DNA of 61,611 nucleotides from the NCBI GenBank assembly GCA_964574865.1, contig CAZNOT010000001.1, positions 1 through 61,611 on the forward strand, read 5' to 3'. The DNA comes from an uncultured Candidatus Saccharibacteria bacterium. Its GTDB lineage: Bacteria; Patescibacteriota; Minisyncoccia; Phycocordibacterales; JAACPR01. A model generated the notes under the pieces. The model saw only the letters and a list, made by a program, of their open reading frames with translations, had not been told where the DNA came from and made no database searches. The position numbers were made by a program, and so were the translations under genes. This document shows, one piece after another, positions 38,026 to 41,000 of this stretch; position 1 is the first letter of the stretch; every line of letters starts with the position of its first letter.

Positions 38026-41000
38026 TTAGAGGCTCACACCCACCTTAAACCTGTACGGCTCCTCCCCGACCGGATCCCCGCCGGTGCGGACGGCGTTCCA
38101 GAGGATGGAGTGCGCGTTGACCTTCTGGGTGATCTCGGCGCGGTACTCCTCGACGAGCGCGCGGCCGTCAGCGTCGGCGTCGATCGTGAGCGCGATGCGG
38201 TCCGACGGCGCGAGGCCAATCTCCTTGCGCTTGTCCTGGACGAAGCGAACAAGCTCGCGGATGACACCTTCGCGGCGGAGCTCCAGCGTGAGCGCGTCGT
38301 CGAGCCAGACCGGCGCGTCCTCGGGGAGCGACGGGTCGGGCTCGACCGCCTTCACGTTCACCTCGTCGCGCAGAATCGCCACGAGCTCGGCGTCTTCAAA
38401 AATTGCGGCGTCGCGAACCTTGAGCCGCGCGAGCGGCTGGCGCACCTTGTAGCCGCTCTTCGCGCGGAGCTGGAGGCCGAGCGAGGCCGCGGCGCGGGTG
38501 GCGGACATTCGAGCCAAGAGCGCCTCGTCGGGCTTGCCGCGCGAGGGCCACGGCTCGAGGTGCACTGAGCGCATTGGCCCCCTCACGCTCCGGTACACGT
38601 GCTCGGCCAAAAACGGCGCGAGCGGCGCGAGAATTTTCGAAATTTCGACGAGCGCCCAGCGCATGGTGCGGAGCGCGGCCGATTTCTCGCCGAGGGCAGC
38701 GCCCTCGCGCATGCGGTCGCGCGAGCGGCGCAGGAACCAGTTCGAGAGGTCGTCGATGAGCGGCAGGATTGGGCGCGCCGCGCGGTCGAGCTCGTAGGCG
38801 TCCATCGCGCGGCCAACCTCGGCGGCGGCTTCGGCGACGCGCGCGACGAGCCATCGGTCGAGGGCCGCGACAGAATCTGCGCCGGCCTCGGGCGCGCTAT
38901 CGCCGGCGGCGAGCGCGTAGAACGCGAGGCAGTTCTCGAGGCGCGAGACGAGCTTCTTGCCCACCTCGTCGACGCCCTTCTCGGAGAACGCGACCTCCTC
39001 GCCGCGCACGGCGGGCGACGATAGGAGGAAGAAGCGCAGCGCGTCGGCGCCGTAGCGGTCGACGACGCCCATGACCGGCGGGAAGTTTTTCAGGCTCTTC
39101 GACATCTTGCGGCCGTCCTCGGCGAGGATGAGGCCGTTCACGACGACGTTCTTGTACGGCGCCTTGCCGAAGATCGCGCCGGAGAGCACGAGCAGCGTGT
39201 AGAACCAGCCGCGCGTCTGGTCGAGGCCCTCGGCGATGAACTCGGCCGGGAAACCTTTCGGCTTGGAGAAAAGACTCTTGAGCGGCGCGAGCGGACCGAT
39301 CGGCGCATCGAAGCGGCTCTTGTCCTTCGGGAACCCGTTGCTCGCGAACGGCACCGAGCCCGAGTCGAACCACGTGTCGAACACGTCGGGGACGCGGCGG
39401 AACTCCTTGCCGCTCTCGCGCAGGACGACCGCGTCGACGTACGGGCGGTGGAGGTCGAGCTCGAAGCTCTCGTCGTGCGGAATCGGCGCGAAGTCGAGCG
39501 GCTTCCAGCCGCCGGTCGGCAGGTAGTCGTCGGCGGCCTTGAGCGCGGCCGCGCGCTCAACCGTCGCGCCCTCGCGGACGGCATCGAGCATCCAGACGAC
39601 GTACTCGTGCGCGACGATCAGGATTTTCTCGCCAGCGTTCGCGGCGTCGGCCTCGTAGATAAAGTCGCCGACGCGGGCGCGCACGTCGCGCAGGTTCTCC
39701 CCTCCCTCGGGGCGACGATCGAAGCGCGCGAGCGTCTGGTCTTTCGCGTCGGCGAAGAACGCGCGGTACTCGTTGATCGGCCTGCCCGAGAAGACGCCGC
39801 TCTGGATTTCCTTCAGCCGCTCGTCGACGACGACCGCAGATTCGGGAAGCCCGAGCGCCTGGCGCACGATTTCGGCGGTCTCGCGGGTGCGCAGGAGGGG
39901 CGAGCAGTAAATCTTTGTGATGCCCTCCTTCGCGAGCGACTTCGCGGCGGCTTCGGCCTGCGCGCGGCCGACGTCGGTCAAGGGTGCCGGCGCGCCGTCG
40001 TCCTGGGAAACGAAGCCGCGCGCGTTCGATTCGGCCTCGCCGTGGCGCATGACGAGCCAGGCGTTCGTCGAGCGCGATTTAGCGCGGAGCTCCGCGAGCG
40101 AGCCGACCACGATCGCCTCGCCGTCTTTGGATTTCCACACCGGCAGCGGCGTGCCCCAGTATCGCGAGCGCGACACGGACCAGTCTTTAGCCTCCGCGAG
40201 CCAGTTGCCGAAACGGTTCTTGCCGATCGATTCCGGCACCCAGCGGACGCCATCGTTGAGCTTGGCGAGCTTGGCGCGAATAGCCGAGACCTTCACGAAC
40301 CACGACGAGAGCGCGTAGTTGAGGAGCGGCACGCCGGTGCGCCAGCAGTGCGGGTAGCTGTGGCGGTACTTCTTCTTCGAGAAGAGGCGGCCGCGAGCCG
40401 CGAGGAGCTTGATGACCTCGACGTCGGTCTCGGAGGGGTCGCTCGCGGGCTTCGCCTGGCGGCCGTCGAGCTCGGGCAGACCGGTGCCGCGGATCACGCC
40501 GTCCATCCCGACGTGCGCGATGAGCGGCAGGCCCTCGCGCTGACCGAGGCTCAGGTCGTCCTCGCCGAACGCCGGCGCGATGTGCACGAGGCCGGTGCCG
40601 TCCTCGGCGGTGACGAAATCGGCGGCGAGCACTTTCCAAAGCTTCGAGCGATCCTTCGGCGCGACTTCCGGGAACGGCGCCTCGTACGCGATTCCGGCGA
40701 GCTCGGCGCCCGTGACGGTCTTCGCGACGCGGTGCTCCTTCCCTTCGAAGACGGTCGCGGCAAGATTTTCGGCGACGACGTAGGTCGCGCCGTCGAGCTC
40801 GACGTAGGCGTAGACGAGCGTCGGGTTCGCCGCGATCGCGACGTTCCCCGGCAATGTCCACGGCGTCGTCGTCCAGGCGAGGAGGAACGTGTTCGGCTGC
40901 CCGACGATCGGGAACTTCACCGTCGCCGACAGGTCATCGATGTCCTTGTACGCCTGCGCCACCTCGAAGTTCGAGACGACGGTTTCCAGCGCGGGCGAAA

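Follow-up and report, generated by a model that had tools for sequence, protein, structure and literature searches.

A histidine phosphatase domain embedded in connective peptide 3 of an isoleucyl-tRNA synthetase from uncultured Patescibacteria

The window analysed here is a stretch of 61,611 nucleotides (positions 1 to 61,611 of contig CAZNOT010000001.1, assembly GCA_964574865.1) from an uncultured Candidatus Saccharibacteria bacterium, and our subject is its ileS gene. Positions 38026-41568 of the minus strand hold an open reading frame (ORF) of 1180 amino acids plus a stop codon. The reading frame itself, Pfam, TIGR00392, AlphaFold2 (AF2) and Foldseek identify it as an isoleucyl-tRNA synthetase (IleRS) of type 2 (MupA/MupB-like, eukaryote-like) with an embedded histidine phosphatase. 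An earlier reading of the letters alone (the original prediction) had placed a full histidine-phosphatase fold in frame inside an otherwise complete IleRS, within one uninterrupted ORF of 1180 residues. We found neither a stop nor a frame change in the ORF, and Pfam, structure prediction and family-wide conservation all agreed on the fold. As judged from its sequence, the gene would encode one bifunctional polypeptide, consisting of a complete IleRS and an intact histidine phosphatase seated in connective peptide 3 (CP3) of the synthetase.

The synthetase lies on both sides of the phosphatase. Residues 1-499 (40072-41568, minus strand) comprise the first Rossmann half, the CP core, the CP1 editing domain, CP2 and the first part of CP3 (beta-hairpin 477-487 and helix 491-498), as assigned by Pfam, by alignment to residues 13-463 of the Priestia megaterium IleRS2 structure 8c8u and by the AF2 model (CP nomenclature follows PMC7191050). 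They include the HIGH-type signature H64-F-G-H67 (41368-41379, minus strand), where H64 and G66 are invariant and H67 is conserved in at least 90% of sequences in alignment A1. Residues 701-1180 (38026-39468, minus strand) resume with the end of CP3 (LDLHRPYVD, beta-hairpin 716-725) and continue through the second Rossmann half (DTWFDSGS), the KMSKS signature, the anticodon-binding domain and a C-terminal DUF5915, again by Pfam, AF2 and alignment to 8c8u (residues 484-847 and 938-1010). The KMSKS signature (K821-S825; 39094-39108, minus strand) has invariant K821 and K824, with M822 and S823 kept in at least 90%. All of the IleRS landmarks quoted in the original prediction (PHFGH, WTTTPWTLPGN, DWSVSRSRYWGTPLPVW, DTWFDSGS and KMSKS) were found.

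Pfam recognised tRNA-synt_1 in two stretches (E=1.1e-119) with Anticodon_1 and DUF5915 C-terminal to them, and the ileS equivalog TIGR00392 of NCBIfam scored 793.3 bits against a cutoff of 621.4, likewise in two stretches flanking the insert. We assign the protein to the type-2, eukaryote-like IleRS because the NCBIfam models ranked second after TIGR00392 are the mupirocin-resistant MupA/MupB types. Across a 100-sequence homologue alignment the synthetic and editing motifs of IleRS are invariant or nearly so; at the editing site, T233-T235, W237, H329 and D338 never vary. The CP1 editing domain carries both its Thr-rich motif (WTTTPWTLPGN) and its GTGxVHxAPxxGxDD motif (DGTGLVHIAPAFGEDD), and the isolated editing domain 1wk8 matched the protein with E=7.5e-32. 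In architecture and motifs the protein resembles the type-2 IleRS2 of P. megaterium (8c8u/8c8v) and Thermus thermophilus IleRS (1ile), at E=4e-195 and template-modelling (TM) scores of 0.79-0.86. The full-length AF2 model reached a mean predicted local distance difference test score (pLDDT) of 92.0 and a predicted TM-score (pTM) of 0.85, with a pLDDT of 90-98 in the blocks of the insert, and its synthetase body gave target-normalised Foldseek TM-scores of 0.79-0.87 to IleRS structures (type-2 8c8v and 8c9d; yeast IleRS 8wnd). By these motifs and matches it is a complete, putatively editing-competent type-2 IleRS.

The inserted domain occupies residues 500-700 (39469-40071, minus strand), exactly where it had been predicted, and was classed from Pfam, PDB sequence matches, AF2, Foldseek and the ratio of nonsynonymous to synonymous substitution rates (dN/dS) as a branch-1 histidine phosphatase of the PhoE/CobC/PspA/Rv2419c-like kind. 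The expected Pfam nesting was seen: His_Phos_1 (PF00300) covers residues 505-673, between the two tRNA-synt_1 stretches, with 128.8 bits against a gathering cutoff of 21.7 (E=2.6e-37; profile positions 2-166 of 194). Structure prediction, proposed earlier as a check on whether the insert is an autonomous domain, gave a confident fold for the insert modelled alone (AF2 pLDDT 91.6). Foldseek matched this model best, with probability 1.00 and TM-scores of 0.70-0.77, to Rv2419c-type phosphatases (4qih, 6s2q), PspA (4ij5), CobC (6e4b, 6nru), PhoE/YhfR (1h2e, 1ebb) and TIGAR (3e9c); the best sequence matches in the PDB were to TIGAR (1.2e-12) and PhoE/YhfR (1.2e-11), and also to PspA and CobC.

All four phosphatase motifs quoted in the original prediction (LVMRHGEAESN, CSPLLRTRETA, DERLKEIQSG and ILIVAHEYVV) are present in the insert. 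The RHG motif R508-H509-G510 (40039-40047), with the phosphate-binding Arg and the nucleophilic His, is invariant in 120/120 homologues and in 210/210 ungapped IleRS inserts. Of the two further arginines that had been named as catalytic, R560 (39889-39891), the second Arg of the phosphate pocket, is invariant in homologues and IleRS inserts alike, and R562 varies between K, Q and R. The proton-donor Glu, E587 (39808-39810), stands in a phosphatase-type EIQSG context and is kept in 120/120 homologues and 213/217 IleRS inserts; the second catalytic His, H654 (39607-39609), is kept in 120/120 and 217/217, respectively (all four on the minus strand). Homologues with these invariant residues extend down to 48% identity, and the catalytic core residues are equally kept in free-standing relatives of the insert. 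Measured against the closest relative (L001), the insert has a dN/dS of 0.17 and the two core segments have values of 0.15 and 0.22; insert and synthetase experience the same purifying selection. The embedded phosphatase is likely to be active, and residue conservation together with dN/dS points to phosphomonoesterase activity through a phospho-histidine intermediate.

The domain had also been called PGAM-like, which holds at the superfamily level only. In cofactor-dependent phosphoglycerate mutases the Glu is followed by ERHYG and the second His stands in HGNSLR. The insert reads EIQSG, not ERHYG, has AHEYVV at the second His and no HGNSLR, and groups with the small phosphatases. The mutase models were rejected on score (NF038349, 75.6 bits against 225; NF002901, 57.9 against 261; NF002339, 49.2 against 316), as was GpmB, whose curated model remained far below its cutoff. 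The named phosphatase subfamilies were rejected too (CobC TIGR03162, 75.5 against 162.9; PspA NF045917, 65.7 against 350; SixA TIGR00249, 31.2 against 74.5), and the best NCBIfam phosphatase match, NF005567 (RNase H/acid phosphatase), reached 91.4 bits against a cutoff of 326. Because all subfamily models lie below cutoff and the Glu and His contexts are of the phosphatase type, the insert is, on profile and motif evidence, a compact branch-1 histidine phosphatase of about 200 residues, outside the named subfamilies and predicted not to be a phosphoglycerate mutase.

Comparison with the characterised small branch-1 phosphatases, among them CobC (alpha-ribazole phosphatase), PspA (phosphoserine phosphatase) and Rv2419c (glucosyl-3-phosphoglycerate phosphatase), leads to the same placement. 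The insert shares their fold, the catalytic quartet with the Glu donor, an 'E-[IL]-x-x-G' motif and a length of about 200 residues, but its identity to them is only 22-30% and it stays below every subfamily cutoff. Those enzymes stand alone in metabolic operons, whereas the present domain is embedded in an enzyme, or its relative is encoded beside ileS.

We then located the insertion site. Alignment to P. megaterium IleRS2 (8c8u) pairs query residues 23-484 with 13-463 and query residues 702-1075 with 484-847, and about 218 query residues, including the whole phosphatase, stand where 8c8u has about 20 (463-484). CP3 connects CP2 to the second Rossmann half, has a topology that varies among solved IleRS structures and binds zinc in T. 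thermophilus IleRS (PMC7191050). The nearest insert-less Patescibacteria IleRS all carry a 76-77-residue CxxC...CxC knuckle at this position. The insert lies exactly in the tip loop of this knuckle, where '...GSIKELEKLS|SVKVT|DLHKHFID...' becomes '...GSLAELRAKS[insert]LDLHRPYVD...'. The host site had been described as a short variable linker, which understates it: it is the CP3 tip loop, in the nearest insert-less relatives a zinc knuckle. Unlike those relatives and T. thermophilus IleRS, the window protein is without the zinc ligands. The AF2 model shows short linkers on both sides (helix 491-498 to strand 503-508; strand 688-691 to hairpin 716-725), and with a pTM of 0.85 and high pLDDT through the insert it predicts a phosphatase mounted rigidly on the synthetase.

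The flanking cysteines were counted in the 120 fused proteins: 27 have at least four and 72, the window protein included, have none. On these counts the zinc site was lost in many lineages, after the insertion. The same counts bear on a different explanation, in which the domain is a structural or ligand-binding module, either a scaffold replacing the CP3 zinc knuckle or a phosphate-binding (for example tRNA-binding) appendage, and turnover is not selected. The absence of knuckle Cys from the 72, set beside insert-less relatives that all keep them, favours such a module, and so do some inserts in valyl-tRNA synthetases (ValRS; see below) that keep the R-H...R pocket and are without the proton-donor Glu and second His. 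Appended tRNA-binding domains are, moreover, frequent in the evolution of aminoacyl-tRNA synthetases (aaRS). However, the 27 fused proteins that retain the cysteines argue that the insert was not born as a replacement for the knuckle, and all catalytic residues of the IleRS lineage, E587 and H654 included, are essentially invariant even at 48% identity, a pattern difficult to account for if the domain does not catalyse. We consider the structural module clearly improbable.

The fusion is not peculiar to this contig. The guanine-cytosine (GC) content is flat at 0.65-0.70 over both junctions. In a search of a 5.8-billion-protein collection (assemblies from NCBI, JGI, ENA and Logan), 120/120 best homologues carried both PF00133 and PF00300, at 48-83% identity and 1143-1267 amino acids; the named sources were Paceibacteria, Parcubacteria, and Kaiser-, Yonath- and Zambryskibacteria. 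A scan of one genome per GTDB species found the junction-spanning segment encoded in at least 228 species-representative genomes, the best 80 of which were all Patescibacteria. The phyletic search called for in the original prediction thus found the fusion in Patescibacteria. The uniform GC and the recurrence of the architecture in independent assemblies and in at least 228 species genomes exclude a chimeric assembly, against which the original prediction had proposed to map reads. In a ValRS-rooted neighbour-joining tree of the IleRS core (insert removed), 50/50 sampled fused proteins fell in one clade, which fits a single ancient insertion followed by vertical inheritance.

The supposed rarity of the fusion needs revising in one respect: within a large clade of Paceibacteria it is the norm. 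What stands is that product names are generic and that full-text searching of the literature turned up no account of the fusion. The homologues are called only 'isoleucyl-tRNA synthetase', 'class I tRNA ligase family protein' or 'hypothetical protein'. At NCBI, insert-less Patescibacteria proteins are named 'isoleucine--tRNA ligase' or 'valine--tRNA ligase', and phosphatase-bearing ones 'class I tRNA ligase family protein' or 'hypothetical protein'. Because phosphatase-bearing IleRS and ValRS receive only such generic NCBI names, the fusion is invisible in product names.

An intein or mobile insertion was rejected: there is no Hint or homing-endonuclease Pfam match in the insert, which joins the synthetase at KS|RSTN and SFE|LDLH. 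Only short GC-rich chance repeats, and no flanking repeats, were found at the insert. A role in a defence system was likewise rejected, with no PADLOC match. An artefact or selfish element (chimera, frameshifted gene pair, intein or mobile insertion) could draw only on the unusual architecture itself and on the multi-copy variants described below. We give it next to no credence, given one uninterrupted ORF, uniform GC, an architecture common to hundreds of independent assemblies and an insert under purifying selection, with no Hint or endonuclease domain, flanking repeat or defence-family match.

An exhaustive search with the insert alone (1.84 billion representatives) returned mainly IleRS fusions and fragments, and also free-standing proteins of about 190 residues at 30-44% identity. 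One of these (P0189, 189 amino acids) is encoded 1 bp upstream of an insert-less 931-amino-acid IleRS, at a locus ordered argS, histidine phosphatase, ileS, small ORF, recO, large ORF, class II aaRS. The window has the same gene order except that the phosphatase is inside ileS: argS (42184-43926, minus strand) lies upstream, and downstream are a small ORF, a recO-like gene (36916-37740, minus strand), a large ORF (34446-36881) and a class II aaRS (32947-34392). Both argS, which in split relatives is separated from ileS by the free phosphatase gene, and recO were assigned by Pfam and locus comparison. A Portnoybacteria locus (L088) has the same split arrangement, with the phosphatase gene overlapping the start of ileS, and partial versions of it were found in L083, L084 and L085, in which a free-standing relative immediately follows argS, immediately precedes an IleRS N-terminus, or does both. 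The free-standing phosphatases measure 183-195 amino acids (L081, 8001-8570; L088, 3468-4019; L083, 671-1258; L084, 3430-4011; L085, 875-1444) and are flanked by argS on one side and an insert-less ileS on the other, or stand in the equivalent position at the end of a contig; in L081, 1 bp separates phosphatase and ileS.

Synteny was sampled at 80 fused loci, 62 with enough upstream and 71 with enough downstream sequence. The argS gene was upstream in 49/62 and the large ORF downstream in 61/71, while a class II aaRS was found in 55 and recO in 47 of the 80; the argS-ileS-recO-large ORF-class II aaRS block is conserved across Paceibacteria. None of the 80 had a separate phosphatase gene near the fused ileS. 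In the domain tree, the ileS-adjacent free phosphatases and the IleRS inserts form one group, with the ValRS inserts outside. In the core tree all sampled insert-less proteins together form the sister group of the fused ones, and the domain tree, built on 200 residues, is poorly resolved for the direction between split and fused forms. Three states of the relation between phosphatase and IleRS are found: unassociated, adjacent gene and internal domain. From loci and tree together, the phosphatase subfamily is specifically tied to ileS, as adjacent gene or as insert. Conserved synteny and vertical inheritance also suggest that the window protein is the cell's working IleRS and, with the motifs, we infer isoleucine-specific charging of tRNA-Ile.

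A second group of hosts emerged from the searches. Two of the top matches to the insert were ValRS proteins, one of which (P0211, 1538 amino acids) exceeded the ValRS equivalog cutoff of 704 bits with a score of 849. Searching with P0211 returned dozens of PF00300-bearing ValRS of 1011-1626 amino acids, interleaved with ordinary ValRS of 850-980; where named, the phosphatase-bearing proteins come from Peregrinibacteria and Gracilibacteria. Each carries one to four phosphatase copies (P0211, P0121, P0273-P0386), at least one of them at the CP3 site. The main insertion site lies between 'DWCISRQIWWGHxIPVWY...' and '...QDxDTLDTWFSS'. Because ordinary ValRS hold a CxxC...CxxC knuckle there, which the phosphatase replaces in the bearing proteins, this site is homologous to that in IleRS. 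The ValRS-borne and IleRS-borne domains share about 26% identity, and every ValRS domain has a second ValRS domain as its nearest neighbour. In the 150 closest representatives, the only multi-domain hosts of insert relatives are aaRS.

Additional copies occupy other sites. In P0211, P0273, P0275 and P0121 an extra ValRS copy stands before CP2, and in P0211 (about 636-915) and P0273 (about 731-994) an extra stretch of about 200 residues without a Pfam match separates the first phosphatase copy from CP2. Two-copy IleRS proteins also occur (P0187, P0150, P0179 and P0231); the second copy of P0231, at about 867-1061, lies at another site, between the KMSKS region/catalytic domain and the anticodon-binding domain.

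These distributions bear on whether the two halves of the protein cooperate. It is conceivable that the fusion serves co-expression and that the activities are independent: a housekeeping phosphatase gene (for example a broad-specificity sugar-phosphate, phosphoserine or nucleotide phosphatase) would by chance have stood beside ileS, the genome being a reduced one, and a permissive loop would have taken it up. The domain is indeed a small phosphatase of generic type, assigned to no subfamily; the genomes of Patescibacteria are small, and translation genes crowd the window. The domain is already fused elsewhere to unrelated enzymes (a bifunctional RNase H/acid phosphatase and an 8-oxo-(d)GTP phosphatase), and CP3 is structurally variable among IleRS structures (PMC7191050). 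Capture by chance of location, however, accounts poorly for a separate phosphatase lineage at the homologous CP3 site of ValRS, often in two to four copies, and for aaRS being the only multi-domain hosts; it also leaves unexplained why the association with ileS exists in two genetic forms across a deep divergence. We regard independence of the two activities as rather unlikely.

The explanation that we favour, with moderate confidence, is that the phosphatase is functionally coupled to the synthetase in general. That it works with the synthetase is made most likely by the pairing of neighbour gene and fusion for ileS, and by the fact that ValRS of other Patescibacteria carries a phosphatase of another group at the homologous position in CP3. 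Several points weigh against coupling. We know of no superfamily member that acts on RNA ends, and at least one of the fusions of this domain to nucleic-acid or nucleotide enzymes is without an established mechanistic link between its halves. Distant insert-less ileS genes (in Kuenenbacteria and at two other Paceibacterota loci) have no phosphatase neighbour. The same is true of the two insert-less valS loci checked, and for this reason the split form is shown for IleRS only. Among the ValRS copies, the Glu is lost in 25/87 and the second His in 10/87 while the R-H...R pocket is retained; catalysis would therefore not always be required in the ValRS context. Finally, CP3 is variable and probably tolerates insertions (PMC7191050), so that recurrence at this site counts for less.

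If coupling holds, the phosphatase would be held rigidly beside the catalytic domain by short, conserved linkers and would cleave a phosphomonoester that is either formed at the aminoacylation step or disturbs it. The chemistry would follow the two steps of the family, with transfer of the phosphoryl group to H509 and then hydrolysis of the phospho-histidine, E587 serving as acid/base. Foremost among the candidate substrates would be a tRNA whose acceptor end bears a 3'-phosphate or a pyrophosphate, and AMP or another adenine nucleotide product; a third may be a residue of the synthetase that has itself been phosphorylated. The original prediction had speculated about a nucleotide by-product or an RNA end, and the evidence for a dedicated aaRS partnership makes these ideas more credible. 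A more specific proposal, tentative and in our view possible rather than probable, is that class Ia aaRS of Patescibacteria (IleRS in Paceibacteria; ValRS in Gracilibacteria and Peregrinibacteria) recruited the phosphatase as a third catalytic site coupled mechanistically to tRNA charging. Such a site could free the acceptor end of a tRNA from a 3'-phosphate or pyrophosphate that blocks it, destroy AMP to drive charging or reverse an inhibitory phosphorylation of the synthetase.

Related arrangements are known, none of them equivalent. The mycobacterial RNase H/acid phosphatase (NF005567) and the Nudix protein MutT1 (5gg5, 9cxx) also join a branch-1 phosphatase covalently to a nucleic-acid or nucleotide enzyme, but they are end-to-end fusions with partners unrelated to aaRS, whereas the present insert lies inside a catalytic domain. 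A curated precedent for a foreign catalytic domain in IleRS is the IleRS with a GNAT acetyltransferase (NF040702, ileS_w_GNAT); it involves another domain family, and the profile offset places its extra residues apparently upstream of the editing-domain region. Membership of the window protein in NF040702 was rejected (286.1 bits against a cutoff of 1999). As in the class Ia CP insertions (CP1 editing domain, CP2, CP3 and the leucine-specific domain of LeuRS), the phosphatase is a module between the Rossmann halves, and it is in the CP regions that class I aaRS have classically gained domains (PMC7191050). The known CP modules, however, are tRNA-handling, editing or small structural elements, and none is a phosphatase or another enzyme borrowed from metabolism. 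In the full-text literature outside paywalls we came upon no account of a histidine phosphatase inside an aaRS, of the split/fused series or of the ValRS parallel, and a paper on aaRS of the candidate phyla radiation mentions other aaRS fusions and not that of IleRS with a phosphatase (PMC5370408). Accessory CP domains are thus a known theme, and a histidine phosphatase embedded in an aaRS is apparently undescribed.

The aaRS are among the most studied of enzymes, and their accessory domains usually reveal steps of tRNA handling (editing, tRNA binding, regulation). The fused, split and ValRS forms suggest an unrecognised phosphate-removing step tied to the charging of tRNA with branched-chain amino acids; the bacteria concerned form a huge branch, uncultured and for the most part symbiotic. 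Were the third-site proposal true, a previously unknown repair, quality-control or driving step would lie inside an aaRS. Natural controls are at hand in the fused, split and unassociated forms and in the catalytically degenerate ValRS copies. Because the proteins are named only generically, metabolic reconstructions may miss the phosphatase or, through domain matches, mis-score it as a phosphoglycerate mutase.

The remainder of the window provides the setting of the gene. Five aaRS genes, all on the minus strand, lie within 61 kb (28298-29740, 32947-34392, 38026-41568, 42184-43926 and 59460-60758) and encode a short MetRS of 480 amino acids, the class II aaRS with an HGTP anticodon domain, IleRS, ArgRS and TyrRS. 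The large ORF of the conserved block (34446-36881, minus strand) encodes 811 amino acids without a Pfam match and is the one kept downstream of recO in 61/71 related loci; its relatives gave only a faint CLIPPER match. The 23S rRNA gene (10952-14330, minus strand) spans 3379 nt against the 2925 positions of the Rfam model and contains a group I intron-like element at 11254-11475 (46.4 bits, just below the gathering threshold of 50; E=7.5e-10); a 5S rRNA gene lies at 10713-10823. The window holds no 16S rRNA and no tRNA gene, hence no local tRNA-Ile. In the approximately 8 kb around ileS (36000-44000) the GC content is about 0.59-0.74, and 0.64-0.72 in the gene itself. By the standards of Patescibacteria, 0.59-0.74 is an unusually high range. 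A Paceibacteria metagenome-assembled genome from Lake Mendota is the closest relative. An ORF of 493 amino acids at 47547-49028 (minus strand) carries a ThyX (Thy1) domain on residues 82-250 only.

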